Source: Oscillospiraceae bacterium (GTDB lineage: Bacteria; Bacillota; Clostridia; Oscillospirales; CAG-272). From it: DNA of 64,000 bases. Made by a program: the position numbers and the translations under genes. The number at the start of each line of letters is the position of its first letter. Position 1 is the stretch's first letter. The stretch is taken from assembly GCA_015065365.1 (NCBI GenBank), contig SVQL01000001.1, positions 2,355-66,354 of the forward strand, given 5' to 3'. Positions 2,663-36,830 of the stretch are shown here, piece after piece. The notes under the pieces were generated by a model that saw only the letters and a program-made list of their open reading frames with translations, searched no databases and was not told where the DNA came from.

Positions 2663-4111
2663 TTAGTCTAATGCTTCGATAGAATTAAACAGATTTTCAA
2701 TCTTGTTTTCGGTAGGCGTCTTAACGCCGTTGTACAATCCGGATATATCCTTAGTAGTATTAATGCTTTCAAGCAAAATCTTAGTCTTAAGATTTATCTG
2801 GCTTCCGTATACAAGACCGAAATCGAACACAAGGCTATTGATAACGACGTCTACCATTTCAGCGCAAACCTCGTCGTAGCTGCTCTTTACCTTACAAACG
2901 GTGTTGTAGTAGGTAGTCAGCGTAGTGTCCGAGGACTTCCACGACAAAACCTCTACCATAAACGCGGAGAAGTCAGCGTCTGCCGCGCAGGTAGGAATAC
3001 CGAAGGTCGCGCCGTAGGTATTGTCGTTAGTCGTATAATAGCGTCCCTGCTCTACGTCGTACATAGGATAAGGCAAGGGCGTATAAGAGAACTGTGCGTT
3101 CTCGCCCAAGCTTTCAATGGACGACAGCGAGGAAGCGTAGAAGAACGCTCTGCCGTCAAGGAAGGTATCGTGCGGGTCGTCGTAAGTACCAAACTTATTT
3201 CCACAGAAGGAAAGATCCTCGCTAAAGAGCTTTCTGAGCTCGGCGATACTGTTCATGGAATGCTCGTTAGCAACCTCAACTGACCAATTTTCTTCCTCGT
3301 CGAACGCAACTATCTTATTGTTAAGTCCGCTCCAGAAGGAGATCGGGAATTCCTTACCTCCCGCGACGAGTCCCCAGCTGTCGTCAAGGTCCATCTTGCC
3401 ATCTCCGCCGGGATCGCTCTTCGTATAGATAAGCATCTGCTCTATGGTCCACTGCTTGTCGCGAACCATCTGAACGATATCGGGATGCTGATTTTCAGAA
3501 CCGAGATCTCGGTTGTAGTACAAGGTGTTGATTCTTGCCTTGTCAACGAGTGAGAAGTCACTTACCATGTGGAACAGTCTGCCGCCGACTCTCATCGTCT
3601 CAAGAGTATCGGAGTCGTACCACTCGTTTGAAAAGTCTATATACGATACTGCGTCAAGGTCGTTCATATATCCGCTGGTAATTGCTGTTCCCATATAGTT
3701 GCGCGCCAAGAACGCCAAATCGTAGTCGTAATCGTCAGCGAGTATAACGTTTTTAAGCGCCTCCAGACCGTCGGCATCCTCCGTGTGGCTATCATCAACC
3801 GTAATAGTTACGTTGTAATACTCCTCGATCCAGTTGTTTCTGTGGTAAACGGTATCTGACATTATATCTCCGCCGAGCTCGCCAACAAGCTCAAAATTAG
3901 GCTCGTAGGGGTTGTTCAGAGCGAGAATATTAAAGTTTCTTCCGCCCCAGTCGTAGTGAGGAACGGGATCGGTAGCCGCTTCTTCGACGAGTCCCTGGGT
4001 TTCCGTTTCCTCGGGCTCGTCAACCGTACACGAAACGAAGGTCGTAAGTAAAAGCAACAGTGCAAGAAGCAAGCTGCCTATCTTTAAAAGCTTACTTTTT
4101 AAATTAGTCAT
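2663..4111 (-). CDS. Extracellular solute-binding lipoprotein (sugar-type ABC SBP), orphan
   Basis: Lipobox LLLLLTTFVSC. ~480-aa architecture and motifs (VGGRLFHMVSDFSL...LYYNRDL) typical of Firmicute family-1 SBPs. Its start overlaps the upstream stop by 8 nt (ATGACTAA). No permease or ATPase genes anywhere in the locus. Confidence 0.55.
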   Translation of the reverse strand: MTNLKSKLLKIGSLLLALLLLLTTFVSCTVDEPEETETQGLVEEAATDPVPHYDWGGRNFNILALNNPYEPNFELVGELGGDIMSDTVYHRNNWIEEYYNVTITVDDSHTEDADGLEALKNVILADDYDYDLAFLARNYMGTAITSGYMNDLDAVSYIDFSNEWYDSDTLETMRVGGRLFHMVSDFSLVDKARINTLYYNRDLGSENQHPDIVQMVRDKQWTIEQMLIYTKSDPGGDGKMDLDDSWGLVAGGKEFPISFWSGLNNKIVAFDEEENWSVEVANEHSMNSIAELRKLFSEDLSFCGNKFGTYDDPHDTFLDGRAFFYASSLSSIESLGENAQFSYTPLPYPMYDVEQGRYYTTNDNTYGATFGIPTCAADADFSAFMVEVLSWKSSDTTLTTYYNTVCKVKSSYDEVCAEMVDVVINSLVFDFGLVYGSQINLKTKILLESINTTKDISGLYNGVKTPTENKIENLFNSIEALD

Positions 4112-5879
4112 CTTTTCTTCTCCTTGAGGTTAAACCAACGACGCCTATTGCAGAAGCCATAACCATAGCCGCGCCGCACAGTCCGATAGAGCTGCCGCAG
4201 CCGCCCTTAGGCGCCTCGGTCTCGGGAGCGGGAGCAGCCTCGGTGTCCTTATTATCCTCTACCAATACGGGAGGCTTGTTTTGGGGCTTGGAGGATCCGC
4301 CGTCATCATTTTCGTTCTCGTTGCCGTCGTCCTCGGGAATGTCCATAGGAGGAGCCGCTTCATTTTCAGCAGCTATGAGAGCAACACCCTTGTATACGTT
4401 AAGGTCACTTACGGTTACTTCGGTCACGAAATACGAATAGAAGTAAATTCCAAGATAATCTCTAAAGAATACGGAAGGATCTTCAACAGGGCTGTACTGC
4501 TCGATAAGAAGCCATCTGCCCTCGGAGTCCTTTACGTACAAAGCGATCGTGGTATTATCGCCGTTGATCTCCATAGCGTACTCCTGAACGGAAGGATAGT
4601 TCTCCGTTCCGCCGTCGTATCCGGGAACGTAATCGCTAGTAAGCGTAGAGTAATCAACGTGAGAGTATCCGCTTACCGCGTTACCGTTTCTCTGCGGTCT
4701 TCCCTTGTTAGCATAGAAGTATCCGCCGTAGACACCGTCGATGAGCAATCCAAGCGGAACGTTGCTCGTACGGGTCATAGTAAACTTAACGGTGTAAGAA
4801 TATCCTGCGCCGAGAGGAAGTCCCTCGATGTCTGCGCCCCAAGCGGCGTTTTTCTTTTCGGTAACGCCTTCCTCGCCCGTAGGTCTTTCAGTAACCCTAA
4901 TGGTTACCTTGCCTGCGTCCTCGGAATCAACGTTTGCGGTGATATTATCGCAAGGCCACTCCCAACCTGCGTTTGCAGCAGCGGCTGCGTTGCTGGGCTT
5001 GAAGCAATCGTCAGCTCCGCTGAAGTCAGCAGAGTAAAGAAGTCCGCCCTCTTCAACTCCGTCCCACAAAGCCGTTGAGATTTCGGGTTCTTCGCCTTCA
5101 CCCTCGCCTTCACCCTCGCCACCTGCGGGAGGAGTAACGGCAGCATTTTCATTAGCTACAACCGATATGCCCTTGTATACGCATACGTCGCTAACGGTTG
5201 CTTCAGTTACGTAATACGAATAGAAATATAATCCAAGACGGTCTCTGAAAAATTCGGGCGGATCCTCCTTGGGAGTACCATCGTCTATCTTGCTCCATTT
5301 GCCGTCCTCGCCCTTTACGTACAAAGCAAACGTCGTATCGTCACCGTTTATCTCAATAACGTACTCCTGCTCTGTCTTTTCGGTATAATTAACCCAGCTA
5401 TGTCCTGTCAATGCGCTACCGTTTCTTTGAATTCGAGCCTTGTGTGCGTAGAAATAACCGCCGTGAGTGCCGTCAAACAGCAATCCGATAGGTTTTGCGT
5501 TATCTGCGCAGGAAACCTTGAACTTAATCGTATAGGAATATCCCTCGCCAAGAGGAAGATCGTCTACGTCCGCGCCCCAAGCAGTATTGTTCTGCGGTGT
5601 AACCTTAAAAGTCACTTTGCCGGAGTCCTCAGGATCAACCGTTGCGGTTATATTATCGCAAGCCCAGTTGTAGCCTGCGTTTGCGGCAGCAGTTTCGTTG
5701 CTGGGCTTGTAGCAGTCACCAGCGCCGCTAAAGTCAGCCTCGTAGAGAAGCGCTCCGTCCGCAGCAGCAGCGTAAATATCGTTCGTAGCCACGTCTGCAA
5801 ACGTCGCGATTGCCATGAAGGGTACGGTCATCATCAAGACCAATACCAATGCCAAAATTTTTTTCATTGTATTTTTCAT
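4104..5879 (-). CDS. Secreted protein with two lectin-like repeats and a C-terminal GGCG-helix-RRRKDD anchor/sorting signal
   Basis: Signal peptide MKNTMKKILALVLVLMMTVPFMAIATFA. Two ~230-aa internal repeats (LLYEADFSGAGDCYKPSN... and LLYSADFSGADDCFKPSN...), each ending VSDxxVYKG, joined by a (GE)n linker. The tail is KGGCGSSIGLCGAAMVMASAIGVVGLTSRRRKDD. Confidence 0.75.
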   Translation of the reverse strand: MKNTMKKILALVLVLMMTVPFMAIATFADVATNDIYAAAADGALLYEADFSGAGDCYKPSNETAAANAGYNWACDNITATVDPEDSGKVTFKVTPQNNTAWGADVDDLPLGEGYSYTIKFKVSCADNAKPIGLLFDGTHGGYFYAHKARIQRNGSALTGHSWVNYTEKTEQEYVIEINGDDTTFALYVKGEDGKWSKIDDGTPKEDPPEFFRDRLGLYFYSYYVTEATVSDVCVYKGISVVANENAAVTPPAGGEGEGEGEGEEPEISTALWDGVEEGGLLYSADFSGADDCFKPSNAAAAANAGWEWPCDNITANVDSEDAGKVTIRVTERPTGEEGVTEKKNAAWGADIEGLPLGAGYSYTVKFTMTRTSNVPLGLLIDGVYGGYFYANKGRPQRNGNAVSGYSHVDYSTLTSDYVPGYDGGTENYPSVQEYAMEINGDNTTIALYVKDSEGRWLLIEQYSPVEDPSVFFRDYLGIYFYSYFVTEVTVSDLNVYKGVALIAAENEAAPPMDIPEDDGNENENDDGGSSKPQNKPPVLVEDNKDTEAAPAPETEAPKGGCGSSIGLCGAAMVMASAIGVVGLTSRRRKDD

Positions 5880-5921
5880 AAAAAGCCTCCTTGTTTTTTT
5901 GAAAAAAATTTTTAATGCTTT

Positions 5922-6047
5922 TTAGAATGGGTCTTCCGCCCAGTTATCGAGAGTGTCGCTTCCGAATATGACAGAAAATACCATGATGTCCTTCGTGTCA
6001 AGATTTACGACGCTGAGCTCGGGAACGACGTATTTTTTATTTTTCAT
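5922..6047 (-). CDS. Conserved 41-aa micro-protein (MKNKKYVVPELSVVNLDTKDIMVFSVIFGSDTLDNWAEDPF), unknown function
   Basis: ATG at 6047 with AGGAGG 9 nt upstream; TAA at 5922-5924. The paralogue at 32321..32449 has 33/41 identical residues, and half of the codon differences are synonymous. Too short for the supplied ORF track. Confidence 0.6.
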   Translation of the reverse strand: MKNKKYVVPELSVVNLDTKDIMVFSVIFGSDTLDNWAEDPF

Positions 6048-6065
6048 AATACTGTTCCTCCTTAA

Positions 6066-9000
6066 TTAGTAAACGAATTTTGCATAAACGGGCAGATGGT
6101 CGGAGGGATATCTCATTACTCCGTCAACCTCATCCACCTTGTTGTTGATTACGGTATACTCGAGAGCCTCAGCGTTTCTGTATATGACGTGGTCGAAGAC
6201 ATACTTATTACGAACTGTGTAATCGGTTCCGTCAAGCGTACCGCCGGTGTCACCTGCAATGAGCGCCTCGTCTCTTGCGAAGGAGAGTCCGCTGTCGGAG
6301 TATCCGTTGAGAACGACCTTACCTTTAGCCGAGCTAACGTCTGCATTCATGTCACCGGTAAGTATCTGCGTAGGATACTGTGCTGCCTTTTCCGCAAGCC
6401 ATGCAGCGAGAAGTCTCGACTGATATTCACGCAAGAGATGGTCGTCATCACACTCCGAATCAGAGGAGCTGGTACCGTCACCGTAATGGAGGTGAGTATT
6501 TACGAAGAGTATTACCTCGCCGGTCGTCTTGTCTTTGAGAACTGCGTAGCTAAAGGTTCTTCCGATGTCCTCGTCAGAGAACCAGCCCTCGGCATCTCCC
6601 TGAACGTCGATAGACATATCTGTGCCCTCGTAGCCCTCAATGGTATAGTCGTCAGCAAGATTCTTGAAGGAATCCCAACCGGAGCTCACAAGAGTGAACT
6701 TCTCAGTCTTGTAGTATATATCGTTGAATGCCCAGCCGTTGCCGAACTTGTTAGTATATTTGTTGTACTGTCTGTTGCCGGCAAGATTTGCATAGCCATT
6801 GTTCTTGAGAACAGCGAGATAATCGTTCCAATCCTCGGTGTCCTCCTGGATTCCGACAACGTCGGGGTTAGCATCAAGGATCGTCTGAACTGCGTTTGCG
6901 GGGTTTCTTCCCTCCCAAACGTCGTCTCCCTTATACTCAAGGTTGTAGGACAATACGTTAATATAGGATTGCTTCTCTTCATTTTCTCCGTCTGCAGGAG
7001 TGAAGAAGCCTGTAAGTGTCTTCAATTCGTCTGCATCGTAGGGGCTGTAAACGGTAGTGCCTGCAATAACTACGGAGTTATTGTACTTCTCGTTGCTCTC
7101 AGTGCTAACATCGCCGTATGCAGCTCTTGCAACCTCGTCGATAGATCTGGAGTTGCTCTCCAAATCGAAATCAGCGTATTTATAGATCTCTCCGTTTACT
7201 TCAATAAATGCTCTTGCGGAGAACTCGCGGTTGTAGTTGCCCGCCTTAACGTTAACGAGCGCGCAGTTGATGGTATAGGAAGCAGGGTCTTCGTCTTCGT
7301 GAATAGTCGTTGCGTCTATCCTTACGTACTTAGCACCCGTAATAGCACCGCATGCGTCCAGAGCCGCCATTTCAAAGTCTACACCGTTATTAGTAAGATA
7401 GTCGGTAGGAGTAATGATCATACCGAGCTTAACATTATCCTCGCCGTAGGTCTCTCTCAAGGAGTCGATCACGGGCTTTGAGAATTCACTCTTGAAGCGG
7501 ATACCCGTAGGAACGCTAAGACGAACGGATGCGCCGGATACGTTCAATACCTTTCCAAACTTAAGTCCCTTGTATATCTTTACGTCGGAAACCTCAGTCC
7601 AAGAATCCGCGTCAGAAGTGCCGCTCAATTTTCTTGTATAAATTCTGCATTTCAATGTATCTTTAAGCGCTGAACCCTCATAGGTCATCGCTCTTACCTT
7701 GTTGAACGAACCGTCGGCATCCATGACGTAAAGAGTCAACGTATTGTACTCGGGATCAACCTCAACAGCAAACGTATGCTTCTCAGCCTTAGCCACGTCG
7801 GTACTGTAATTCCATTTGTCTTCGCCCTCATCCGACTTTTCTACCTTTTGAGTATTCCATTCCCACAGAGAGTTACAACCGAAGCCGTCAATAACAAGCG
7901 TCTGATTGCCATCCACCTGAATACCGAGTCCGTACTTGTTATATGCTGTGTTTCCGAACTCCAGATCAAACACGAGGGTGTAATTGTTGTTCTTGTATAC
8001 GGGAGCTGCGCCTGCTTCAACCTCATCGGGATTCAGAACCTCTCTGAGAGGATATCCGCTGTCAAGTCCGCCCCATATAGCGCGGTTATATGCCTTGCCA
8101 TCAATAAGGGTAATTCTTGCAGAGCTTCCGTCCTCGGAAATAACAGCTTCTGCGCCATTATTATTACTGTCGTAGAATCCCTGATGCCAATTAAAGCGAT
8201 CAGCGAAGTTGACGGTATGCAATAGATCGCCCTCGTTTGCGTTTGCGTACTCAGCAGCTCTGTCTTCCTTAACGGATATAGGCAAGCCCTTGTATATCTG
8301 CACGTTAGAAACATAAGTCCAAACGTCGCTGCCAGTCGTGTAGCTGCGCGTGTAAATTCTGCAACTCAATTCAGTGCCAAAGGACAATTCTTCGTATCTG
8401 GCAACCTCGTTAAACGTGCCGTCAAGGTCTACGATATAGAGGCTCATTACTCCGTTTTCAGGATCGACCTCAACCGCGAACTTCTGAGTTCCTTCCTTAG
8501 GACTCCACAAACCGTCGTAGTCCCACTGCTCGGTGGGATATTTTTCTGCGTCTGAACTACTGAGCTCGGTATTCCAATCCCACAGCTTAGTGTTTCCGTT
8601 TCCGTCAACGGTAATAGTGTAGCTTCCGTCCACCTGAATACCAACCAGCGTTTTACCTCCGGTCGTGCTTCCGAAATCCGCATCGAATATAACCGTATAT
8701 TTTCTGTAATTGCCGTATACGTCTATCGTTGCGCTGGGATCATCAGGATCCTCTGCCGTACCTACAACCTCCATAAGGGGATACGCACTCTTCAATCCGC
8801 CCCACATAGCGCGCTTCGAGCTTGAGCCCAATACGGCAAGTCTTGCGGAGCTTCCGTCCTTGGAAACGACTACGTCCGCGCCTCTGTTGGAGTCAGTTGC
8901 AAAATAACCGAGCCACTCAAGCGAGTTGAAATCGACGGTATTCAGAAGATCGCCAACCTCTGCGTTATCATACTCAGCAGCTCTGTCTACCGTTCCCGTT

Positions 9001-10433
9001 TCAATATCATTAACCAATCCCTTGTATATCAGTATATCCGAAATCTCATTCCAGGAAACGCCGCTTACTTTTCTAGCATAAACTCTGCAACTCAATTCAT
9101 CATTAAAAGATATGCCGCTATAGGTTTCTACCTCTACGTACGTGCCTTCGGCATTCTTAACGTAAAGAGTCATCGTTCCGGTAACGGTTCCGTCTTCAGG
9201 GTCAGTTCCGGTATCAGGGTCAATCTCAACGGCAAATGAATTCATCTCGTCATAACCGTTCGCTGCCTTATCTATCCAGTTGACCGTTCCCGTAGTGTTT
9301 TTGGTATTCCAACTGTACAAATAGGTAAGGCCATCGCTGGCGACAAGAACCGTTTTACTGTTATCCACCTGGATGCCTACTCCGGTTTTTCCGTCTTCGA
9401 ATCTCGCGTCAAAGGTGACCGTGTACGTTTCTCCGTTCGCGAGAGAAAAGCGTTCCGCAGATACAAGTCCGCCCCACATAGCACGACCATTTTTGGCACC
9501 AAAAACAGATTTAGACGTGTTATGTATCTCCTGCTTTAGCGATCTTCCGCTTGCGGAAACGTATACATAGGAATTCCAGTTGTTGTGGTCAGCATAATCG
9601 TCGCTCCAGGACGTATCGTTGAAGTTGATAGCCTTAAGCAGTTCTCCGTTCTCTGCCTCTGCGTACAGCTCAGAAGGAGTCATTTCAACAGCGTCGGGAG
9701 TAACGACCGTTCCGTTTACGGTAACCTCACCGATATCGATGCAGCCGTCCTTGCTGGGTGCGGTTACGGCGATAGCGAAATACTTTGCCGTGACACCCTG
9801 ACCTTCACCGTCACGAAGATCTATCTTATGACCAACTCTGAGGAAGCCGTCAACGGTCTTGGAAGCGTATGCGTCGTCACCCTCAGCGGGGAAGTTCGCG
9901 CCCGCGTTCGTTCCGTCTCCGCACATTTCGCTGAACTCCTTCAAAGCAGTCCAGGTCTCGCCGTCCGTGCTCACGAGGATTTCATATCCGTCGTTTATAC
10001 CCCAGCTTGAAGCAGGATTGCTCCATCTTGCAGCCTGATCGGCAGTATATCCGTTTCCGGCAATCCAAATAGTTACGTCGTCAAGCTCACTCGTGCCGTT
10101 AAGCTCGAATACGGCGTATCCGTAGTACAAGCACATTTCCGAATCTACGAAAAGACGCGTATTTGCAGCGGATATCGCATCCGACTCGTAGTACGGACGA
10201 GCGCTCCTTCCGTCGGCACTCTCATCGTAAGGGTCTCCGTCAATCATTCCCGCAACGGAGCCGTACGAAACGTGCAAATCCCAGTCGTCGTCGTATTTTG
10301 CAAACATCTTCACGTGCTTAATGCTCGCGGGAGTAATTTCAGCATCCTCCGCACTTGCGGGCAAAACTATGATTGGCATTGCCATCATCAAGACCAATAC
10401 CAAGCATAAAAGCTTCTTTGCAATCTTTTTCAT
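6066..10433 (-). CDS. Secreted 1455-aa multidomain protein: F5/8-type-C-like domain, 3 lectin-like repeats, beta-sandwich domain, C-terminal EEP phosphoesterase
   Basis: Start at MKKIAKKLLCLVLVLMMAMPIIVLPASA, with AGGAG 6 nt upstream (ORF-track start 10508 rejected). YEILVSTDGETWTAL is a discoidin-like motif. Three repeats each end xIYKGL. GASVRLSVPTGIRF marks the beta-sandwich domain. EEP motifs: VLSYNLE, VGIQED, VNTHLHYG, TGDMNAD, FDHVIY, PSDHLPV. Confidence 0.85.
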   Translation of the reverse strand: MKKIAKKLLCLVLVLMMAMPIIVLPASAEDAEITPASIKHVKMFAKYDDDWDLHVSYGSVAGMIDGDPYDESADGRSARPYYESDAISAANTRLFVDSEMCLYYGYAVFELNGTSELDDVTIWIAGNGYTADQAARWSNPASSWGINDGYEILVSTDGETWTALKEFSEMCGDGTNAGANFPAEGDDAYASKTVDGFLRVGHKIDLRDGEGQGVTAKYFAIAVTAPSKDGCIDIGEVTVNGTVVTPDAVEMTPSELYAEAENGELLKAINFNDTSWSDDYADHNNWNSYVYVSASGRSLKQEIHNTSKSVFGAKNGRAMWGGLVSAERFSLANGETYTVTFDARFEDGKTGVGIQVDNSKTVLVASDGLTYLYSWNTKNTTGTVNWIDKAANGYDEMNSFAVEIDPDTGTDPEDGTVTGTMTLYVKNAEGTYVEVETYSGISFNDELSCRVYARKVSGVSWNEISDILIYKGLVNDIETGTVDRAAEYDNAEVGDLLNTVDFNSLEWLGYFATDSNRGADVVVSKDGSSARLAVLGSSSKRAMWGGLKSAYPLMEVVGTAEDPDDPSATIDVYGNYRKYTVIFDADFGSTTGGKTLVGIQVDGSYTITVDGNGNTKLWDWNTELSSSDAEKYPTEQWDYDGLWSPKEGTQKFAVEVDPENGVMSLYIVDLDGTFNEVARYEELSFGTELSCRIYTRSYTTGSDVWTYVSNVQIYKGLPISVKEDRAAEYANANEGDLLHTVNFADRFNWHQGFYDSNNNGAEAVISEDGSSARITLIDGKAYNRAIWGGLDSGYPLREVLNPDEVEAGAAPVYKNNNYTLVFDLEFGNTAYNKYGLGIQVDGNQTLVIDGFGCNSLWEWNTQKVEKSDEGEDKWNYSTDVAKAEKHTFAVEVDPEYNTLTLYVMDADGSFNKVRAMTYEGSALKDTLKCRIYTRKLSGTSDADSWTEVSDVKIYKGLKFGKVLNVSGASVRLSVPTGIRFKSEFSKPVIDSLRETYGEDNVKLGMIITPTDYLTNNGVDFEMAALDACGAITGAKYVRIDATTIHEDEDPASYTINCALVNVKAGNYNREFSARAFIEVNGEIYKYADFDLESNSRSIDEVARAAYGDVSTESNEKYNNSVVIAGTTVYSPYDADELKTLTGFFTPADGENEEKQSYINVLSYNLEYKGDDVWEGRNPANAVQTILDANPDVVGIQEDTEDWNDYLAVLKNNGYANLAGNRQYNKYTNKFGNGWAFNDIYYKTEKFTLVSSGWDSFKNLADDYTIEGYEGTDMSIDVQGDAEGWFSDEDIGRTFSYAVLKDKTTGEVILFVNTHLHYGDGTSSSDSECDDDHLLREYQSRLLAAWLAEKAAQYPTQILTGDMNADVSSAKGKVVLNGYSDSGLSFARDEALIAGDTGGTLDGTDYTVRNKYVFDHVIYRNAEALEYTVINNKVDEVDGVMRYPSDHLPVYAKFVY

Positions 10434-10531
10434 GTTTTTCTCCTTTTTTGTTTTGTTTTTATTTTTAATAGCGTATATTTTTACGCCAATTAAATTAAAT
10501 ATAATCACTTAATATCGTTATTACCAAATAT

Positions 10532-28185: not shown

Positions 28186-29520
28186 TTACTCTATCGGCGC
28201 TATATCAACGTAGCAAACGTCGTACAGCTTGAGCGTTGCGTGCCATTCGGCAGACTCCGCTCCATTCACTATCATTTCAGTTATCACCGCCGCATCATTT
28301 CCCGCATCGGTTCTGTATACGGTTATCTTATACTTGCCCTTCATTTCGTTCCATGAAAGCTCTACCTTCTTCGGCTCGGCAGCATCGTCGTCATTGTAGT
28401 GAGTCAGCAAAATTCCGTGGTGCGCTCCGTCGGTAGCCGCTACACAGTAAACATTCTCGCACGACTCAACACTTACCGCATTTCCAAGATCGGCAAGATT
28501 TGCAAACCAATAAAGCGAATAATAGGTTTTAAGAGGCTCTTGGGAAAGAAGCTCAAATACGCCGTTAAAAATGGCTCCCGGACTCAGATCGTAATACATC
28601 AGCATATCAAGCGGCGCATATTGACAAGCCGCCATAACGCCGGTTACGTAGGATGCTCCCTTTATTCCGTTGATTGCTCTGAGGCTGTACACGAAGCTCT
28701 TGCCCCAGCCCTTTATATACGCCCACTCGTTCAGTATGCTTTCGGTCTTTTCATATCCTGCTTCGTCGAGCATGCTTCTGACGAAGTTAACGCGGTCAAC
28801 AACTGTTTCAACCTTGCAGTTATACTCATGCCACGAAAAGAAATCGAGCGGAACGTTTCTCTTTTTCATCTCGTTTATAAATTCCATCATGTACTGTCTG
28901 GCGCCAACGGCAGCAGGTCCGCCTATTTTGAGATTCGGGAAAAGTCCCTTTAAGTGGTTTGCGGTAATTTCATAGAGATCAAAAAACTGCTCCTTCGTAC
29001 CGCTCCACGTAGGTGAGTTGTTGTCCTGCTGAAGGTCGGGCTCGTTCCATATTTCCCAATATTCAATATTATGATGGAAGCCGTCAGCCCAGCCCTCGTT
29101 GTAGTGACGAATAATATGCTCGCAGATAACAGCCCACTTTTTAAAATCCTTAGGCGGGTGAATATAATATTTTTTGGGAGCGTGCTCTATTGTCTGTCCA
29201 AGACGGTAAAACACCTTTGTGCCCGCGTCCATTATATTTTGCAAGTATCTGTCAGTCAAAAAGAAATCATAAGACTCGGGAAGCTCGGGATCTGCGTCAA
29301 AATCAGGGAAAACCCTATATATATCAACTACGTGAGGGCCTCCATACGCAGTGGAATCATCGGAATCGTGAGTTCTTGCGTACGGAAATCTCGCTTCCTT
29401 ATAGCTCTCGAAATTTCCGCGTGTCTGTACTGCAGCCTTGCTTTTGGGGCCGTTGTTTACGGCGTTCATAGGCTTTATCGCGCCAACGGTATTTGAAAAA
29501 TCAACCTTAATCGTGTTCAT
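28186..29520 (-). CDS. Clan GH-A glycoside hydrolase (GH39-like), cytoplasmic
   Basis: NIEYWEIWNEPDL contains the NEP acid/base motif. ~445-aa length and no signal peptide. Start at MNTIKVDF. Confidence 0.5.
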   Translation of the reverse strand: MNTIKVDFSNTVGAIKPMNAVNNGPKSKAAVQTRGNFESYKEARFPYARTHDSDDSTAYGGPHVVDIYRVFPDFDADPELPESYDFFLTDRYLQNIMDAGTKVFYRLGQTIEHAPKKYYIHPPKDFKKWAVICEHIIRHYNEGWADGFHHNIEYWEIWNEPDLQQDNNSPTWSGTKEQFFDLYEITANHLKGLFPNLKIGGPAAVGARQYMMEFINEMKKRNVPLDFFSWHEYNCKVETVVDRVNFVRSMLDEAGYEKTESILNEWAYIKGWGKSFVYSLRAINGIKGASYVTGVMAACQYAPLDMLMYYDLSPGAIFNGVFELLSQEPLKTYYSLYWFANLADLGNAVSVESCENVYCVAATDGAHHGILLTHYNDDDAAEPKKVELSWNEMKGKYKITVYRTDAGNDAAVITEMIVNGAESAEWHATLKLYDVCYVDIAPIE

Positions 29521-29538
29521 AATACATCTCCAAAACAA

Positions 29539-30810
29539 TCAATATATATCGACTTTAGCGAGAACGGGTAGATGGTCTGAGGGATATTTGCCGTTTTTAA
29601 TATTATTTACGACGGTATAATATCTGGTGTATACTGTATCGGTTGTAACGAAAATATAATCGAAAACGTAGGGGTGTCTTTTAGTAAAATTGCCTTCTAT
29701 CAAGGTAGGTCCCGTATCTCCTTTGACCTTCGCAACCTTTGAGGTCATGCCAAAATTCGGATTATCCCCCATAAAGTCGAGAAGAGCACTGCCGCTCACG
29801 GTCGTAGTAGTATTAAAGTCACCGAGAACTATAACGGGAAGATCGTCCTTGTTAACCTTCTTGATAAGCGCCGCAAGCGCGTCTATCTGCTTAACTCTGA
29901 CTTCCTCAGTTGCCCGATAATCGAGGTGTGTATTGATGAAAAGGAATTGCTTTCCCGTTTTATTTTCTTCAAGAACGACGTAAGTCATGGTACGGTATTG
30001 GTTTGAGCCCTCGTATTTTGATTTCCTCTCGGGAGTATCGCTGAGGAAATAGTATCCCTTTCGCTTAACGGTAAATCTATCCTTTTTCCAATAGATATGG
30101 TTGCCCTCGTCAATGTCTCCCTTATAAAGGTCGTAGGTTTTGAGGTTTTCAATAAAGTATTTGCTATGCCCCGTACCGTCCTCCTGAGTTCCGAGAACGT
30201 CTACGTCATTCTCAAGAATAGTTGTAACCATTCTAAGTCTGCAATTTGACTCTCTGCCCTCTTTATTCATATCAAAGAGAATATTATAGGTCATCACGTT
30301 CAAGGAAGGACTGTTCAGATCTTGAATTTCATATCCCGATATTGAAATTTCCTTGCTTTCCTCGTCTCCCGTTGCTTTTGCAAGAAATGCGTCGATAACC
30401 TGACAAAGAGCGCTGTAATTCGCGCCCAACAAAACTATCTTTTTGCCGGTAACGCCGATCAAGCCGCTTTGATTTTGCGCGTACGCCGCCGCAATAGCCT
30501 CGTCGTCCCCATCAAGACCTATCAAAATCTCAGGGCGGTCTTCATTTGAGAGCTCCACCTCAAGGGTAGTGCCATAAAGCGCCTCCAGCTTTTTGTTCAA
30601 ATATACGAACGCCCTTCCTGATCCGGTAATGGCGCTGTTTGAGCATACGACCGTATAGTCCTTCAAGGCAACGCCGTTGATAATCAGCGGACCAGTCACC
30701 GTCGGCGCCTGAGTTTCGGTTTCCTCCGTATTGCCGTTGTTACAGCCAAGAACTGCGGGCAAAAGCATAATCAATGCCAACAAAAAGCTTAAAAATCTTA
30801 TTTTTCTCAT
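29539..30810 (-). CDS. EEP family lipoprotein (intact paralogue of 41..1350)
   Basis: Lipobox LLPAVLGC. ~170-aa N-terminal domain shared with 41..1350 (…LCQVIDAFLAKAT). EEP motifs VMTYNIL, LGTQED, INTHLDY, LGDFNT, FDYIFVT and PSDHLPVL. Confidence 0.85.
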   Translation of the reverse strand: MRKIRFLSFLLALIMLLPAVLGCNNGNTEETETQAPTVTGPLIINGVALKDYTVVCSNSAITGSGRAFVYLNKKLEALYGTTLEVELSNEDRPEILIGLDGDDEAIAAAYAQNQSGLIGVTGKKIVLLGANYSALCQVIDAFLAKATGDEESKEISISGYEIQDLNSPSLNVMTYNILFDMNKEGRESNCRLRMVTTILENDVDVLGTQEDGTGHSKYFIENLKTYDLYKGDIDEGNHIYWKKDRFTVKRKGYYFLSDTPERKSKYEGSNQYRTMTYVVLEENKTGKQFLFINTHLDYRATEEVRVKQIDALAALIKKVNKDDLPVIVLGDFNTTTTVSGSALLDFMGDNPNFGMTSKVAKVKGDTGPTLIEGNFTKRHPYVFDYIFVTTDTVYTRYYTVVNNIKNGKYPSDHLPVLAKVDIY

Positions 30811-31131: not shown

Positions 31132-32274
31132 TCAGTCTTCTTTTCTCTTGATTACGAGAGCCGCGCCGGAAGCGAGTGCTATCATAGCAACGCCTGCAAT
31201 TCCGATAGAGCCGCCGCATCCGCCTGCAGCTGCCTCAGTCTCGGGAGCAGGAGCAGCATCGGTGTTAGCCTCAGTATTTGCGTCGGTTTCGGGAGTCGTG
31301 TTGGTGTTGTTATTCTCGTTGTTATTCTCGTTGTTATTCTCGTTGTTCTCGCCGTTGTTCTCATTGCCGTTCTCCTCGCCGCCTTCTTCGCCGGCAGAGG
31401 GTACGTCTAATTCGGGAGCAGCAAGCTCGTGCTCGGTAACTGCAAGTCCCTTGTATACACTAACGTTGTGAACCTCCATAGTAAGGAACTGCTCGGGGGT
31501 AACGTTGTCGCGTCCGAAACGGATAACGTATTCCCAGTTATCGTAAGCCCAACCGTGGCTCTCCTTAATCATCTGTGCGTCAACAGGCTCATCTTCCATC
31601 GAGAAGATCAATTCCCATGCGCCGTCCTTAACGACGTAAACATTATAAACGGTAATGTTATATACGAATCCAGCAGTGGTTTCGGTATTCATAGCGCCTT
31701 CGGGATGCTCACCGGTACCCTCGTCCTTGATTTCGATAGCGTAGGTCTGGGTCAAAGCAGCGTCACCGGTAGGTCCGTCGTATTCAACCGTAAACTTGGT
31801 GCTATCGTATTTTCCGCCCGCGTTTACAACGTAGGACAGGGTGTTCTTACCGGGAGTAAAGAAGAAGCCGGTTCTCCAGTCGGGATAGTATCCTATCGCC
31901 TGATTTTCATCCTCAGCGCTGAGAGTGAATACGGTGGTATAAGCGCTCTGGTGCATAGTGAATCCACTACCGGGCAAACGTCCGCCGTAACCACTTGTGT
32001 GACCCTCGTTTTTGACATCAGTCTGGGGAATGTAGGTAAAGGACATTCCGTCCTCTGAGACCTCAACGTTAGCGCCTGCCCAAGTAGCCGTAACGCCGAA
32101 GTATTCCTTGTTGTTGAAGTCTACGTTAGCGATAAGCTCGCCGTCTTCAACTGCGCCGTAGTTTTCGGGGAGCGACACCTCGCTGTTCTCTGCGAATGCC
32201 GCGATTGCCATGAAGGGCACGGTCATAAGAGTAACCAATGCCAAAGCCAAAATTTTTTTCATTGTGTTTTTCAT
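31132..32274 (-). CDS. Secreted single-repeat lectin-like protein with N/E-rich linker and C-terminal GGCG-helix-KRKED signal
   Basis: Start at MKNTMKKILALALVTLMTVPFMAIAAFA (AGGAGG RBS; ORF-track start 32358 rejected). Repeat motifs YTTVFTLSAEDENQAIGYYPDWRTGFFF, QTYAIEIKDEG and VSVYKGLAV. The tail is AAGGCGGSIGIAGVAMIALASGAALVIKRKED. Confidence 0.8.
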   Translation of the reverse strand: MKNTMKKILALALVTLMTVPFMAIAAFAENSEVSLPENYGAVEDGELIANVDFNNKEYFGVTATWAGANVEVSEDGMSFTYIPQTDVKNEGHTSGYGGRLPGSGFTMHQSAYTTVFTLSAEDENQAIGYYPDWRTGFFFTPGKNTLSYVVNAGGKYDSTKFTVEYDGPTGDAALTQTYAIEIKDEGTGEHPEGAMNTETTAGFVYNITVYNVYVVKDGAWELIFSMEDEPVDAQMIKESHGWAYDNWEYVIRFGRDNVTPEQFLTMEVHNVSVYKGLAVTEHELAAPELDVPSAGEEGGEENGNENNGENNENNNENNNENNNTNTTPETDANTEANTDAAPAPETEAAAGGCGGSIGIAGVAMIALASGAALVIKRKED

Positions 32275-32320
32275 AAAAAACCTCCTTAAAATTTTATTGA
32301 AAAAAATTTGTTTACTGTTT

Positions 32321-32449
32321 TTAGAATGGGTCTTCCGCCCAGTTATCGAGACTGTCATTTCCGAATATTACGGAAAATATCATAATATCCTTCGTATCAA
32401 CAGTAACGACTCTCATTTCGGGAGAAACGTATTTTTTATTGCTTTTCAT
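32321..32449 (-). CDS. Conserved 42-aa micro-protein (MKSNKKYVSPEMRVVTVDTKDIMIFSVIFGNDSLDNWAEDPF), paralogue of 5922..6047
   Basis: ATG at 32449 with AGGAGG 9 nt upstream; TAA at 32321-32323. Same position between the EEP gene and the GGCG-tail gene as in locus A. Confidence 0.6.
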   Translation of the reverse strand: MKSNKKYVSPEMRVVTVDTKDIMIFSVIFGNDSLDNWAEDPF

Positions 32450-32463
32450 TTTTTCATTCCTCC

Positions 32464-33300
32464 TTATCTGTAATAAATTAACTTTGCTATAACCGGAAGG
32501 TGGTCTGACGGATACGGTGTGTAATCAGCATCGTCGTACTCATTGTTTATTACCGAGTATTCAACAGCTTGCATATTTTCATCGGTGTAAAGGATATAAT
32601 CAAATATCCATTCTTCACGCTTTTCGTGCTCCGTTATAAGCGTACCGCCCATATCATGCTTGATAATTGCACTATCCTCAGACGTAAGTAGGCCGCTGTT
32701 ACCAGTAAGCTCAGCAATAGTCTGCTTTCCGGGAGTAGCATTCATATCTCCCATAACTATCTGATTGGAATAGTCAGCTGACATATTGTCAAGCCATCTG
32801 CGCAGAAGTCTCGTCTGATAGTCACGAAGAAGCTCATCATCGGGGTAATTAGAGCCTGTACCCTTTCCATAATGCAAATGAGTGTTTACGACGAGATACT
32901 GTACACCCTTATCATCTTCCAAAACCACGTATCGGAAGAATCTGCCTATTTCGTCAAAGACGGATATGTCAAAGTTACCCTTAGTATCCAAGGTTAAATC
33001 CGCGCCTTTAGCGTCTACGTCCTTATACTCCTTTGCAAGCTTTTTGTAGTACCCTATGCCGCTGGTGACAAGCGTAAATTTATCGCTCTTGTAGTAGATT
33101 GCAAGATTCTCATTTCCGTTTCCGCCGGACTTGTAGCAAGAATATCCTTTAAGCGCCGACAAATAACTGTCCCAATCACTGTCGTCCTCTTGCAATCCGA
33201 GCACATCGGGATTGAACGTCATAATAGTATCTACAACCTTGGAAGGATCTCTGCCCTCCCAACCGTTATCATCGTCCTTGCCCTCGATATTATAGGTCAT
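32464..33300 (-). CDS. EEP phosphoesterase domain ORF, probably the C-terminal part of a lectin-EEP fusion reached by a -1 shift from 33306..36830
   Basis: Motifs MTYNIE, LGLQED, VNTHLHYG, MGDMNAT, FDYILYT and PSDHLPVI. No RBS or signal peptide of its own. The frame is open upstream back to the T7 run and aligns with the A-locus giant (…FF…SLTAMTYNIEGKDDD vs …FF…YINVLSYNLEYKGDD). Confidence 0.75.
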   Translation of the reverse strand: MTYNIEGKDDDNGWEGRDPSKVVDTIMTFNPDVLGLQEDDSDWDSYLSALKGYSCYKSGGNGNENLAIYYKSDKFTLVTSGIGYYKKLAKEYKDVDAKGADLTLDTKGNFDISVFDEIGRFFRYVVLEDDKGVQYLVVNTHLHYGKGTGSNYPDDELLRDYQTRLLRRWLDNMSADYSNQIVMGDMNATPGKQTIAELTGNSGLLTSEDSAIIKHDMGGTLITEHEKREEWIFDYILYTDENMQAVEYSVINNEYDDADYTPYPSDHLPVIAKLIYYR

Positions 33301-33305
33301 CGCTG

Positions 33306-36300
33306 TCAGGGAACAAGTGTATTCACCTGTTCCCTTTGTTGAAAAAAATTCAAAAGGTTATCTCTTTTTTCGTATGGGCTGTATTTCTTTCCGTCAACCG
33401 TTTCTACCTCATACTGATACGTCAAGCCATTCTTAACAGTTCCGCGGACGTCGCTCAAGTCGTTATATGCAGCCATAGCGATGTCGGCTACCGTTCTTGA
33501 ATTGTTCTCCGAATCGTAATCGGAATAAATATATTCCACGTTTTCCCCGTTCACAATCTTTACGTAAAGAATTGCCGAGAAGGCTCTCTCGTAGTTTTGA
33601 GATTTTATATTAGTAATAGCGCAATTTATCTTGTAATAATCGCCATCCTCCAAAACTGTCAGCGCGTCGATTTCAAGATACTTAACGCCTTCTCTGTCGG
33701 AAGCATCAAGTGCCGCCTTAGTAAACTCAACGTCGGTAAGATAATCGGTAGGAGTGATCAACATTCCCATAATAACGTTATCCTCGCCGTATTTTGCCTT
33801 AAAGGTGTCGATATAGCTCTTGTAGATAAGACCTGTAAAGCGAAGTCCCGTAGGCTCGTCTATACGAATAGACGCTCCGTTTATAAGGTCTACCACGGAA
33901 GGAAGATTTCCGCTTCCCTTATAGACCTTTAGATCGCTAACGGTTACGACACCGTCCTGATTTCCAACGTTAGAATTACGGTAGAAACGCAATGCAAGCT
34001 CGGGATCCGTCGTACTCCAGTTCAGTGCAGTCGCAGGATCATTAATCAATTCATCGGGGTTAAGTGCGCGCACCAATACCCACTTGTTGTCCTGCAATAC
34101 CCAAAGATTGTATATAGTACAGTCAAAATCACTCGTAGACGTGCCGTTATCAGATATCTGAATTGCATACGTCTGAGTAAGAGCCTTAGTTCCGCCGTAG
34201 GTTCCCTCTACACCGGCAACAACTGCGTTGTTTTTGCCTTCGTTCGTACTCTTGTTAAATCTGTATGCGTTCTGACCGGGAGTCAAAATAAAGCCTGAAT
34301 TCCAGTCGGGGTAAAATCCTATCTCTTGATTTGCATCCGAAGCCTCCAAGGTAAATACAACGGTATACGAGCTCTTGAGTATCGGATAACGGTTGACAGC
34401 CATATCCTTACCCCATGCGCCCGATTTGCCATCTTCTATTCTCATCTCGATCGTGTGCTTATTCAAGATGGTCTCGTTTATTCCAGCCCAGCTGTCACCG
34501 GTGTTCCATATACCGGGCGTACCGTTGAAGTCAGCATAATAGAGCAGCTCGCCGTCATTAGCATCGGAATAAGACTTGGGCATGGGCACGCTTATCTTTC
34601 CGGCAGTAACTCCAAGTCCCTTATAAACGTCCAAATTACTGAGAGTTACGTACTTGCCCTCTTGTGATTTATCCAAGCCGTTACGGTAGAATCTAAGCAC
34701 GTATTCGTAATTATCTGCCGTATCGGTGTTCCACTTCAAATTTTCTTCAATCGCAGCAGCTGCCGCTTCGTTTCCGGGAGAGCTGAACTTAAATATAAGA
34801 ACCCACTTACCGTCAATCGCCACGTAAAGATTATACTCGGTAATATCGTATTCGAAGTTGGCTACATTGCCGTCGTTCTCGTTTCCGCTATCCATGATCT
34901 CAATAGCGTAGGTTTGCTTCAAGGCCTTCGTTCCGTTGTAGCTTCCCTTTATCTCGCTTCCGTTTTTATCAACGAGAGTTTCACCCAATTTACCAACACC
35001 GTATCTAAAGCTGTCAGCACCCGGCTTCAAAATAAATCCGGTGTTCCAATCGGGATAAAATCCTATCTCCTGATCCGCATTTTCAGCCTCTACCGTAAAT
35101 ATCGCGGTATAGGAGCTTTGAAGCATTCTATAAGTAGGATAATGCAGCTCAGCGCCCCAAGCAGCGCCCTCCGTAACGATTGCACCGTTCGCATCATAGG
35201 TAGTGGGCACCAAATTAATAGAGCGGTCCGTCACATTATAACGGTTCTCATTCATTCCCGCCCAAGCCTTTTGGGGAGTCCACAATCCACCGTTATCGTT
35301 TGTGAAGCTTGCGTTTATAATACACTCAACATCCTGACCGTAGGAACCGAACGCGCTAACAAATCCTTCACTTACCGAAAGTCCGGTATAAACGCTCAAA
35401 TCGCTAACGGTCATACCCAAATTTTGAGTTGTATCCTGTCCGTTACGGAACAAACGAAGCACGAATTCGTAATTGCTTGAATTCCACGTCAAAGCATTTT
35501 TGATAGCAGCTGCGTGCTCGGAATCCTTAAGGCTGAACAGCTTAACCCATTCGCCATCCTGAGCCACCCAAAGGTTATATTCGGTGATATTGTACTTAAA
35601 ATTCTCTTTTGCTCCGCCGTTTTCATCGCCTTCATCCTTGACTTCGATCGCGTAAGTCTGCTTCAATGCCTGCGTTCCGGCATATCTTCCCGAAAAGATA
35701 GTACTTCCGGTCGATCCACCGGCGTATTTACCGTATCTGTAGCTATCCTGACCGGGCTTCAAAATAAATCCGGTGTTCCAATCGGGGAATAGACCGAGCT
35801 CTTGATTTGCGTCTTCAGCCTCCAAGGTAAATACTACCGTATAAGCACTCTGGAGCATACGGTAATCGGGATACGGTAAGTCATCGCCCCAAACTGCGCC
35901 CTGTGTAACAAGATCACCGTTTGAATCATACATGGTAGGTATCAACATAACCGAGCTTCCGTCAGAGGAAGGACGCTTTGTCTTCATACCCGCCCAACTT
36001 TCTCCCGGGCTCCAAAAATCTCCTGTGCCCTTAAAATTTGCAGTATAGATAAGCTCACCGGTAGGGGGAGCCACCTTTCTGTTCGTAACAGCAAGACCAC
36101 TGTAAACGTTACAGTTGCTGACTATCAGCGACTTTTTTACTTGAGACTCGTCAGTTCCGTTACGCCAGAAGCGAAGCACGTATTCATAGTCACCGCTTGA
36201 CCAATTCAACGCAGAGTCAGGGTTGCAAGTCAATTCACTGCCTGAAAGCGAATACAAGAGCGTCCACTTGCCGTCAAGAATTACCCAAAGCTTATAAGCG

Positions 36301-36830
36301 GTAATCTTATAGTTTCCTCTGCCGGTTCCGCTGTCCTCAACCTCAATAGCATAGGTCTGCTTCAAGGATTTCGTTCCGTCATACGTTCCTTCTATACCCG
36401 CGTAGGTAGTACCTGCTCTATCTCTGCCGAACCTGAAGCTATCCTGACCGGGCTTTACGATAAAGCCTGTTTTCCAATCAAGGAATAGACCTACCTCCTG
36501 GTTCGCATCTTCAGCTTCCACGGTAAACACTGTGGTATAAGCGCTTTTAGACATCTCATATTTTGAAGTATCCAGTGCGCCGCCCCAAACGGATCCTTCT
36601 TCTCTTTTGAAAGTAAACTTCAAATCTATGGAGCGTCCGTCTTCGGAAATCTGGGGATCTATGCCTCCCCAACCACCTATGGGAGCATCGGAATTCCACG
36701 CTCCGCCGCCGTTAAAGTTGATCTCATCAATCAAATCTCCGACTTCCGCACTCGCGGGCAAAATTATCATCGGCATTGCCATCATCAAGACTAGCGCAAA
36801 GCATAAAAGCTTTTTTGCAATCTTTTTCAT
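33306..36830 (-). CDS. Secreted protein with four ~220-aa lectin-like repeats plus beta-sandwich domain (zero-frame product 1174 aa)
   Basis: Signal peptide MKKIAKKLLCFALVLMMAMPMIILPASA. Four repeats carry AxWG, YTxVFTxEAEDANQExGxxPDWNTGFIxKPG, QTYAIE and xVY[KST]G. GASIRIDEPTGLRF marks the domain also found in 6066..10433. Confidence 0.85.
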   Translation of the reverse strand: MKKIAKKLLCFALVLMMAMPMIILPASAEVGDLIDEINFNGGGAWNSDAPIGGWGGIDPQISEDGRSIDLKFTFKREEGSVWGGALDTSKYEMSKSAYTTVFTVEAEDANQEVGLFLDWKTGFIVKPGQDSFRFGRDRAGTTYAGIEGTYDGTKSLKQTYAIEVEDSGTGRGNYKITAYKLWVILDGKWTLLYSLSGSELTCNPDSALNWSSGDYEYVLRFWRNGTDESQVKKSLIVSNCNVYSGLAVTNRKVAPPTGELIYTANFKGTGDFWSPGESWAGMKTKRPSSDGSSVMLIPTMYDSNGDLVTQGAVWGDDLPYPDYRMLQSAYTVVFTLEAEDANQELGLFPDWNTGFILKPGQDSYRYGKYAGGSTGSTIFSGRYAGTQALKQTYAIEVKDEGDENGGAKENFKYNITEYNLWVAQDGEWVKLFSLKDSEHAAAIKNALTWNSSNYEFVLRLFRNGQDTTQNLGMTVSDLSVYTGLSVSEGFVSAFGSYGQDVECIINASFTNDNGGLWTPQKAWAGMNENRYNVTDRSINLVPTTYDANGAIVTEGAAWGAELHYPTYRMLQSSYTAIFTVEAENADQEIGFYPDWNTGFILKPGADSFRYGVGKLGETLVDKNGSEIKGSYNGTKALKQTYAIEIMDSGNENDGNVANFEYDITEYNLYVAIDGKWVLIFKFSSPGNEAAAAAIEENLKWNTDTADNYEYVLRFYRNGLDKSQEGKYVTLSNLDVYKGLGVTAGKISVPMPKSYSDANDGELLYYADFNGTPGIWNTGDSWAGINETILNKHTIEMRIEDGKSGAWGKDMAVNRYPILKSSYTVVFTLEASDANQEIGFYPDWNSGFILTPGQNAYRFNKSTNEGKNNAVVAGVEGTYGGTKALTQTYAIQISDNGTSTSDFDCTIYNLWVLQDNKWVLVRALNPDELINDPATALNWSTTDPELALRFYRNSNVGNQDGVVTVSDLKVYKGSGNLPSVVDLINGASIRIDEPTGLRFTGLIYKSYIDTFKAKYGEDNVIMGMLITPTDYLTDVEFTKAALDASDREGVKYLEIDALTVLEDGDYYKINCAITNIKSQNYERAFSAILYVKIVNGENVEYIYSDYDSENNSRTVADIAMAAYNDLSDVRGTVKNGLTYQYEVETVDGKKYSPYEKRDNLLNFFQQREQVNTLVP
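33309..33348 (-). promoter_or_regulatory. Candidate -1 recoding cassette: slippery U UUU UUU, 7-nt spacer, 11-bp hairpin
   Basis: mRNA sense: AAU UUU UUU CAACAAA GGGAACAGGUG AAUA CACUUGUUCCC UGA. T7 run = 33342-33348 (A7 on the + strand). Hairpin = 33309-33334. The zero-frame stop is at 33306-33308. Confidence 0.45.

Follow-up and report, generated by a model that had tools for sequence, protein, structure and literature searches.

A well-described counterpart of the element discussed here is dnaX of Escherichia coli, a chromosomal bacterial gene in which a simple stem-loop begins about 6 nt past an X_XXY_YYZ heptamer, and whose two products, tau and gamma, share the same N-terminus and differ in their C-terminal domains. 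In a "reversed" dnaX arrangement, the zero-frame stop comes right after the shift site and it is the long product that requires the shift (PMC5009743). This reversed arrangement is the closest known analogue of the cassette considered here, which lies on the minus strand of a 64,000-nt stretch of contig SVQL01000001.1 from an Oscillospiraceae bacterium (the window, to which all positions refer unless a relative is named). The cassette stands at the junction of two open reading frames (ORFs), an upstream one of 1174 residues (33306..36830) and a downstream one that encodes an endonuclease/exonuclease/phosphatase (EEP) domain. The analysis makes it quite probable that the junction is a conserved programmed −1 ribosomal frameshift (−1 PRF) within the chromosomal gene of a secreted protein with several domains.

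The likeness to dnaX extends to the existence of relatives that arrive at the equivalent result along other routes, which are represented here by the fused paralogues described below. The two cases differ in the heptamer and in the gene: dnaX uses A_AAA_AAG, read by tRNA-Lys, in a replication factor, while the present sites are of the form U_UUU_UUY, read by tRNA-Phe, in a secreted protein of several domains, one of them EEP. Unlike in dnaX, no upstream Shine-Dalgarno-like stimulator is consistent across the lineages that carry the cassette. A second relevant case is fucA1 of Sulfolobus solfataricus, reported as an alpha-L-fucosidase encoded by two ORFs that are joined by −1 PRF at a heptamer (PMC1616953). 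There too a carbohydrate-related enzyme gene is split in two ORFs and the full-length product arises by a −1 frameshift. However, fucA1 is archaeal, its heptamer is A-rich, and the shift restores one catalytic domain, whereas the window cassette would add an entire further domain at a domain boundary, with the short product still a complete protein. The orfA-orfB pairs of the IS3/IS911 insertion sequences (IS) and the carboxysome gene csoS2 are further conserved bacterial −1 PRF systems in which a heptamer is combined with a stem-loop, or a more elaborate fold, on its 3′ side; IS elements use U_UU.U_UU.C among other heptamers (PMC4066793), and the csoS2 shift yields a long and a short isoform (PMC5009743). 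In contrast to the IS elements, the window gene is not mobile and its stimulator is a plain hairpin (9–12 bp in the lineages studied), and while the shift in csoS2 truncates the protein, the one proposed here would extend it.

In the zero frame, the minus strand of the window reads ...CTT TTG AAT TTT TTT CAA CAA AGG GAA CAG GTG AAT ACA CTT GTT CCC TGA CAG CG ATG ACC... across the junction. The T7 run (33342..33348) forms the slippery heptamer U_UUU_UUU, which stands in the zero frame as AAU UUU UUU, i.e., in the X_XXY_YYZ phase. It is followed by the 7-nt spacer CAACAAA (33335..33341), the last A of which is paired by RNAfold to leave 6 nt, and by the proposed 3′ stimulator, a stem-loop of 11–12 bp with one G·U pair (33309..33334). 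The latter is composed of the 5′ arm GGGAACAGGTG (RNA GGGAACAGGUG, 33324..33334), the loop AATA (RNA AAUA, 33320..33323), and the 3′ arm CACTTGTTCCC (RNA CACUUGUUCCC, 33309..33319), and the zero-frame stop UGA lies immediately 3′ of it (33306..33308). A preliminary description of the locus had given this anatomy correctly to the base. It had also placed the EEP frame at −1 and open only from just upstream of the T7 run, and the −1-frame ORF, which comprises the linker and the EEP domain (32464..33357, minus strand), indeed opens at 33357; the annotated EEP ORF of 278 residues (32464..33300, minus strand) is called from the ATG at 33300. The final −1-frame stop 5′ of the slip site is a UAA four codons before the T-run (33358..33360, minus strand). 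A productive shift is confined to a 50-nt stretch that contains the heptamer and is bounded by this UAA and the zero-frame UGA.

The hairpin has a folding energy of −19.4 kcal/mol (z-score −5.85), compared to a mean of −7.2 kcal/mol for shuffled sequences, none of which (0/200) folds as well. Runs of at least seven T are common in the 64-kb window, with 26 on the two strands, but GGGAAC..GTTCCC occurs only once, so that it is the combination that is remarkable and not the T-run alone. A search of Rfam gave no match for the cassette element at E ≤ 1. Reading of the hairpin as an intrinsic terminator was also considered and ruled out, since there is no U-tract 3′ of it and it sits within conserved −1-frame coding. 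In that frame the hairpin bases encode the inter-domain linker G-T-G-E-Y-T-C-S-L (STKGTGEYTCSLTA).

Addition of one T in silico results in a single ORF of 1455 residues with the junction ...LLNFFSTKGTGEYTCSLTAMTYNIEGK. The same length is found for locus A (6066..10508, minus strand), a paralogue in the window in which the upstream C-terminal domain (domain X, see below) and the EEP domain are in one ORF with the junction GGC TTC TTC ACT CCT..., when it is counted from its ATG (MKKIAKK). The two proteins align at 36% identity over residues 730–1453, straight across the junction, so both the length and the alignment of the fusion are as the preliminary description had put them. The predicted trans-frame junction peptides are DNLLNFFSTK and GTGEYTCSLTAMTYNIEGK, with DNLLNFFQQR and EQVNTLVP as the zero-frame counterparts.

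The split is reproduced in independent assemblies. The exact 278-residue protein is found on 23 contigs and the exact 1174-residue protein on 18, from JGI, ENA, and Logan assemblies. All 15 of the loci fetched have the T7 junction, the 4367-bp gene pair being 100% identical in 14 of them and having one mismatch in the fifteenth. A T7/T8 homopolymer miscall, named earlier as the competing explanation, is excluded by the fact that the T7 split was assembled independently in the three sources. Because some of these assemblies may share reads, it is the conservation in distant relatives that constitutes the decisive evidence against an assembly error.

The cassette, followed by a −1 EEP frame, is present in 10 lineages (window/L024, L018, L020, L022, L147, L148, L149, L150, L152, and L153), the source organisms of which are uncultured ruminant-gut Clostridia. 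L024, from a GTDB metagenome-assembled genome (MAG) named "Eubacteriales bacterium", is 84% identical and has the same cassette as the window. The identity of the EEP domain to that of the window is 84–86% for L024 and L016 and about 45–55% for the other cassette lineages. A protein query spanning the junction returned dozens of EEP-only ORFs of 278–301 residues that start at or slightly before MTYNI (one 86% identical, the others about 42–54%), together with fused proteins of about 500 residues (35–42%). At every EEP-only locus for which the DNA was fetched, an ORF without a Pfam match ends just 5′ and the EEP frame is at −1. Where the contig holds the upstream ORF entire, its length is 433, 635, 682, 688, 834, 1095, or 1174 residues.

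The junctions of the relatives follow a common plan. Four of them carry CAG TAA directly after the heptamer, with AGT TTT TTT CAG TAA T GGGAACAAG...CTTGTTCCC in L018, GGT TTT TTT CAG TAA G GGGAACGGG...CTTGTTCCC in L020, GAT TTT TTT CAG TAA C GGGAACCGG...CTTGTTCCC in L022, and GCT TTT TTT CAG TAA C GGGAACGGG...CTTGTTCCC in L149. The others read GGT TTT TTT GGTCAGG GGGAACAGG...CTTGTTCCC (L147 and L148), GGT TTT TTT GGTCAGA GGGAACAGG...CTTGTTCCC (L153), GAT TTT TTC GCATAAC GGGAACAGG...CTTGTTCCC (L150), and GTT TTT TTT GGGCAAG GGGAACAGG...CTTGTTCCC (L152). All 10 lineages have the heptamer in phase, as T7 in eight, T6C (U_UUU_UUC) in L150, and T8 with the last seven in phase in L152. The spacer between the heptamer and GGGAAC is 7 nt in every lineage, and the zero-frame stop of the relatives lies 2–11 codons past the heptamer, frequently as CAG UAA. 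The loop is 5 or 8 nt long, and in every lineage either 38 or 41 nt separate the end of the heptamer from the ATG. The loop indels are thus multiples of three, which keeps the frame from the slip site into the EEP domain, as expected if ribosomes read through. The comparison of orthologues that had been suggested as a check on the cassette, namely whether T-run, spacer, and hairpin are conserved together, is therefore positive.

No extra copies of the cassette are found in the flanks of any of the fetched loci. A scan of metagenome contigs with the DNA pattern TTTTTT-N(6-9)-GGGAAC-N(6-24)-CTTGTTCCC gave 43 matches, none of which adjoins an EEP gene (0/43); these are chance matches, the collection scanned being without the relevant ruminant contigs, even the JGI contigs of the window itself. 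One strain deserves separate mention. In L025, a MAG from roe-deer colon, the run is T7 (5007..5013) and the EEP frame is +1, while in L152, an independent assembly of this strain (99.93% identity across 2893 bp), the run is T8 (1095..1102) and the arrangement is the canonical −1; an in-frame EEP is given by neither length. A reading of L025 as a cassette variant of the +1 or −2 type was considered, and was rejected after L152 had shown T8 and the canonical arrangement. The difference is due either to a homopolymer error in a MAG or to real length heterogeneity.

In a codon alignment of nine lineages, we compared the degenerate columns in which the amino acid is invariant. A single codon is kept in 5/5 such columns in the heptamer and stem core (TTT, TTT, GGA, TGT, and TCC) against 10/57 in the EEP body. 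Fixed bases are also found in codons the amino acid of which changes: a T invariably precedes the T-run, in a codon that specifies N, S, G, D, A, or V; GGAAC is invariably preceded by G, in a codon for K, M, R, T, G, or E; and the codon before TGT is always NCT, encoding T, A, or S. The Leu codon directly 3′ of the stem, in contrast, varies among CTG, CTT, and CTC. The single-codon columns and the fixed bases together point to selection at the nucleotide level beyond that for coding.

The stem core GGGAACNGG/CUUGUUCCC is conserved in the 10 lineages, with 98.9% of the cells paired compared to 38–68% for slid controls, and the hairpin folds in all of them with energies of −15 to −26 kcal/mol. 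Of the nine stem pairs, seven are invariant, and two vary on one side only (A-U/G·U), with one C·U mismatch in L022. Stem position 7, which is the wobble base of the Thr codon, is A or G in 9/10 lineages, both of which pair with the opposing U. Some lineages have additional pairing below the conserved core. A lower-stem extension GGUCAG/CUGACC is seen in L147 (581..616), L148 (4963..4998), and L153 (3144..3179), and one of the form GUAA/UUGC or UUAC in L018, L020, and L022; both are absent in the window. These lineage-specific extensions cut the effective spacer to 1–3 nt and may be the sole part of the structure that shows covariation.

The upstream ORF encodes a protein that begins with the signal peptide MKKIAKKLLCFALVLMMAMPMIILPASA, continues with repeat modules, and ends with a domain of about 190 residues, here called domain X, that closes with ...KKYSPYEKRDNLLNFF; the short product of standard decoding has the C-terminus ...NFFQQREQVNTLVP. 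No family match to the 1174-residue protein was obtained in Pfam (even at E ≤ 10), NCBIfam, or the PDB sequences. The label "lectin" given to it in the preliminary description has been dropped, there being no match to a lectin or carbohydrate-binding module in these three databases. The ORF is under purifying selection, with a ratio of nonsynonymous to synonymous substitution rates (dN/dS) of 0.17 versus L024 (dS about 0.35). A word-indexed protein search with the C-terminal 203 residues of the upstream ORF gave only two matches, and an exhaustive phmmer search with its last 220 residues against 1.84 billion cluster representatives was used instead, which gave 1375 relatives of domain X at E ≤ 1e-3. 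Among the best 150 of these (clusters at 50% identity), 24 end in ...FF followed by at most 8 residues, 11 of them as FFQ* and the others as FFA, FFS, FFN, FFG, FFGQREQ, FFGQGEQE, or FFELGEQ. The R/G-E-Q in these C-termini corresponds to (A/G)GG GAA CAG, i.e., the zero-frame reading of the 5′ arm. The split form as a whole makes up a large clade. At least 28 of the same 150 run on into an EEP domain.

These fused forms provide a natural control. In locus A and the fused relatives L026–L032, the FF pair is encoded by TTC TTT or TTC TTC, and there is neither a T-run nor a hairpin. The cassette is thus missing where the two domains are already in one frame, which is the pattern expected if it substitutes for fusion. 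In a collection of 5.8 billion proteins, two junction-spanning queries gave no match above 45% identity that covers both halves, and the linker encoded by the cassette, GT(G/S)..CSL, was not found in frame in any retrieved protein. In a rough neighbor-joining tree of the EEP domains, which has no support values, the fused locus A, L026, L027, L030, P0122, and P0126 nest among the split forms. This nesting suggests a single origin of the cassette and then its repeated replacement by in-frame fusion.

The downstream ORF matches the EEP profile PF03372 at E = 3.7e-16 and shares 44% identity with the C-terminal part of locus A. The EEP motifs N, E, D, H, and SDHLP are invariant and the catalytic motifs are all kept across the 10 lineages, and the ORF is under purifying selection (dN/dS of 0.24 versus L024, dS about 0.35–0.38). 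The AlphaFold2 model of the fused homologue P0027 (mean predicted local distance difference test score 86.7) matches EEP structures at E of about 1e-18. In this model, domain X is β-rich and ends in the helix PYTAEQRTLLD, after which a short linker leads to the first EEP strand, FTVMSYN. On the basis of this layout, the slip site falls precisely where domain X gives way to the EEP domain, and the hairpin encodes the linker as modeled. The nearest structures found by Foldseek for the EEP domain of P0027 are from gut Bacteroides, namely 3mpr, 3g6s, and the mannosyl-6-phosphatase BT3783 (4c1r), with E values of 2e-18 to 7e-17 and a template-modeling score of about 0.75. BT3783 and the enzyme of 3mpr have, in addition to being the best structural matches, a glycan-utilization neighborhood similar to that of the window (GH39, AraC, PfkB). 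However, the sequence identity is only about 21%, and the Bacteroides enzymes are single-domain proteins without frameshifting. A putative secreted enzyme directed at glycan phosphates is a reasonable lead.

In the mechanism that we propose, ribosomes translating the 1174-residue frame would arrive at AAU UUU UUU, the P and A sites being occupied by the two Phe codons, while the GC-rich stem-loop 6–7 nt downstream would sit at the mRNA entrance and resist unwinding. Some ribosomes would then slip back by one base, with tRNA-Phe re-pairing perfectly on UUU/UUU, and would read the hairpin as the linker and continue through the EEP domain to give the 1455-residue fusion. The unshifted ribosomes would stop at the UGA after the hairpin and release the 1174-residue protein without the enzyme domain. 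The cassette would in this way set a fixed ratio of scaffold-only to scaffold-plus-enzyme from one mRNA, with the signal peptide common to both. The components are in line with what is known for −1 PRF. The heptamers observed, U_UUU_UUU and U_UUU_UUC, are exactly those of the H_HH.U_UU.Y class, a class rated near the top for −1 efficiency in E. coli (Sharma et al., PMC4066793), and a spacer of 5–9 nt to the 3′ structure is usual (PMC5009743). With the conserved cassette, the selection on it, and the fused controls, the earlier proposal of a −1 frameshift cassette giving both a short product and an EEP fusion is supported. The case is a strong computational one rather than a demonstration, and both the slippage itself and the roles of the two products we infer from sequence.

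Several other explanations have been considered for the same arrangement. One is that there are two adjacent genes without recoding, with translation of the EEP domain starting separately at the ATG at 33300, through coupling or re-initiation once the upstream ORF has terminated. Gene callers do annotate two ORFs everywhere, and an ATG (MTYNI...) is found in every split lineage 2–35 nt past the zero-frame stop. This Met (VMTYNI/VMSYNI) is, however, equally conserved within the fused proteins, which makes it a residue of the domain rather than evidence for a separate start; as proof of such a start it was rejected, the fused homologues keeping the identical Met. There is moreover no Shine-Dalgarno match before the EEP ATG, although a core match of at least 5 nt precedes 19 of the window's 29 genes, and the hairpin ends only 8 nt before the ATG. 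A free EEP protein would also have to do without a signal peptide, although a signal or lipoprotein peptide stands at the start of the upstream ORF and of every fused homologue. Separate initiation, which we regard as unlikely, would in addition leave unexplained the in-phase heptamer, the invariant T at X in codons for six amino acids, and the indels in multiples of three. That the downstream part is instead a dead end, either a C-terminus pseudogenized by a fixed frameshift mutation or an assembly or homopolymer error, is hardly credible. A one-base deficit in a homopolymer is admittedly the commonest sequencing and mutational artifact, and locus A shows the single-ORF ancestral state that such an event would start from, but the split state recurs in assemblies from three sources, and the downstream ORF is intact, under the purifying selection given above, and preserved with its catalytic motifs in 10 lineages down to about 45% identity.

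The remaining two explanations invoke the T-run itself. In transcriptional slippage, RNA polymerase would add a U on the T7 run, the resulting U8 mRNAs would encode the fusion, and the hairpin would be incidental or otherwise employed. The preliminary description had left the choice between ribosome and RNA polymerase open. In every lineage the site is centered on a homopolymeric T-run, slippage is part of the reason for the under-representation of UUUUUUU in genes (PMC4066793), and dnaX itself is known to use ribosomal or transcriptional slippage depending on the species (PMC3711429). On the other hand, transcriptional slippage in bacteria is documented on runs of about 9 A/T (PMC5009743), while here the run is of 7 and in L150 it is T6C, a run of only 6 that still forms a perfect X_XXY_YYZ heptamer. 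The 3′ hairpin would be untranscribed while the polymerase is on the run, and neither the constant 7-nt spacer nor the lack of synonymous change in the stem would serve any purpose. The stimulator 3′ of the run, the in-phase heptamer, and the T6C lineage thus favor ribosomal slippage, and slippage of the polymerase appears quite improbable. Phase variation at the DNA level, in which slipped-strand mispairing would toggle the fusion on (T8) and off (T7) in subpopulations, would place the homopolymer in its typical setting, the gene of a secreted or surface protein (PMC3711429), and the run length does differ between the two assemblies of one strain (T7 in L025 and T8 in L152). Both of these lengths are, however, out of frame, and the in-frame length is seen nowhere, since 15/15 contigs of the window strain are T7, the other lineages are in the −1 state, and the searches of the 5.8-billion-protein collection gave no in-frame protein. 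Given also that the run is interrupted in L150 and that mispairing needs no conserved hairpin, this possibility is very remote.

A number of observations weigh against a programmed ribosomal frameshift, or at least reduce the force of the evidence for it. A formal count of pairs in the 10 lineages gave no compensatory double substitutions in the stem (0 pairs), so that the stem is supported by invariance and energy only. The stem bases are also constrained by −1-frame coding, and this overlapping coding may be the reason why the stem cannot drift. In some lineages the hairpin z-scores are modest (−1.6 to −2.6). The lineages that carry the cassette share ancestry, and conservation of the phase is partly inherited. 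DNA was inspected for 10 lineages only, the other approximately 24 being deduced from protein C-termini alone. Finally, the mismatch between L025 and L152 means that homopolymer length is not perfectly reliable or stable in these data.

As a mechanism, frameshifting of this kind is already known and the cassette is a textbook one; what is new is probably the gene family. Outside phages and insertion sequences, the conserved −1 sites in bacterial cellular genes are, to our knowledge, few (examples are dnaX, csoS2, copA, and cdd), and a full-text paper search found no paper that links ribosomal frameshifting with EEP proteins. We consider it likely that the present genes constitute an undescribed, maintained −1 PRF family in non-mobile chromosomal genes of ruminant-gut Clostridia, where U_UUU_UUY and a hairpin located exactly at a domain boundary set the share of scaffold that bears the EEP domain, and that the cassette has been repeatedly lost or replaced by fusion among paralogues, even within one genome (locus A versus the window cassette gene, locus B). 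If this is correct, it would add both a new gene family and a new use of frameshifting, the dosing of a catalytic domain onto a secreted multi-domain protein, and the family would be a natural experiment on when a stoichiometry set by frameshifting is preferred over a fixed fusion. The comparative series is unusually clean, with at least 10 lineages at the DNA level, about 24 clusters from C-termini, and fused paralogues as controls. There is also a consequence for annotation: hundreds of metagenomic ORFs listed as "EEP family protein" (about 280–300 residues, MTYNI...) and of "hypothetical proteins" ending in ...FFQ are probably the halves of one recoded gene.

Domain X (33309..33968, minus strand, in the window) is characterized by the motif GASxRxxxPxGLRFTG...KYSPYTxxQRxxLxxFF and is without a Pfam model. 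It precedes varied C-terminal modules besides EEP, such as an SGNH-like one in P0117 (GDSYFAGYG) and other EEP-like tails in P0143 and P0195, and it may represent a domain, so far undescribed, that is widespread among the surface proteins of Clostridia.

Loci A and B are parts of a multi-gene duplication, in which 4104..10508 corresponds to 31132..36830 (both on the minus strand), with signal peptides that are 86% identical over 29 residues. One copy is fused and the other has the frameshift cassette. Both loci are followed by a small ORF and by a paralogous gene that starts with MKNTMKKI and has the same AAGGAGG leader; T-run motifs are found near the MKNTMKKI genes, at 5858/5908 and 32253/32306. 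The small ORF, which has a strong Shine-Dalgarno sequence, lies directly 3′ of the EEP domain (32321..32449 and 5922..6047, both on the minus strand) and encodes 40–53 residues, MKSNKKYVSPEMRVVTVDTKDIMIFSVIFGNDSLDNWAEDPF in the window, with the consensus MK.NKKYV.P.L.V....T.D[IV][IM]..S......DNW..D.F. It is present in every split lineage read at this position (L016, L018, L022, L147, L148, L150, L152, and L153) and also after the fused locus A. The small ORF has no match in Pfam or NCBIfam, and from its sequence it looks like a conserved partner peptide.

Just downstream in the window (28186..30810, minus strand) are a second EEP protein of 423 residues (PF03372, residues 173–413) and a GH39 glycoside hydrolase, a pair that recurs beside the cassette gene in L001–L004, L147, and L150. 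The neighborhood also includes an AraC regulator and a PfkB kinase and, in a fetched copy of the locus, a 2-keto-3-deoxy-6-phosphogluconate (KDPG)-type aldolase (PF01081). Judging from this gene content, the locus may be a glycan-utilization cluster.

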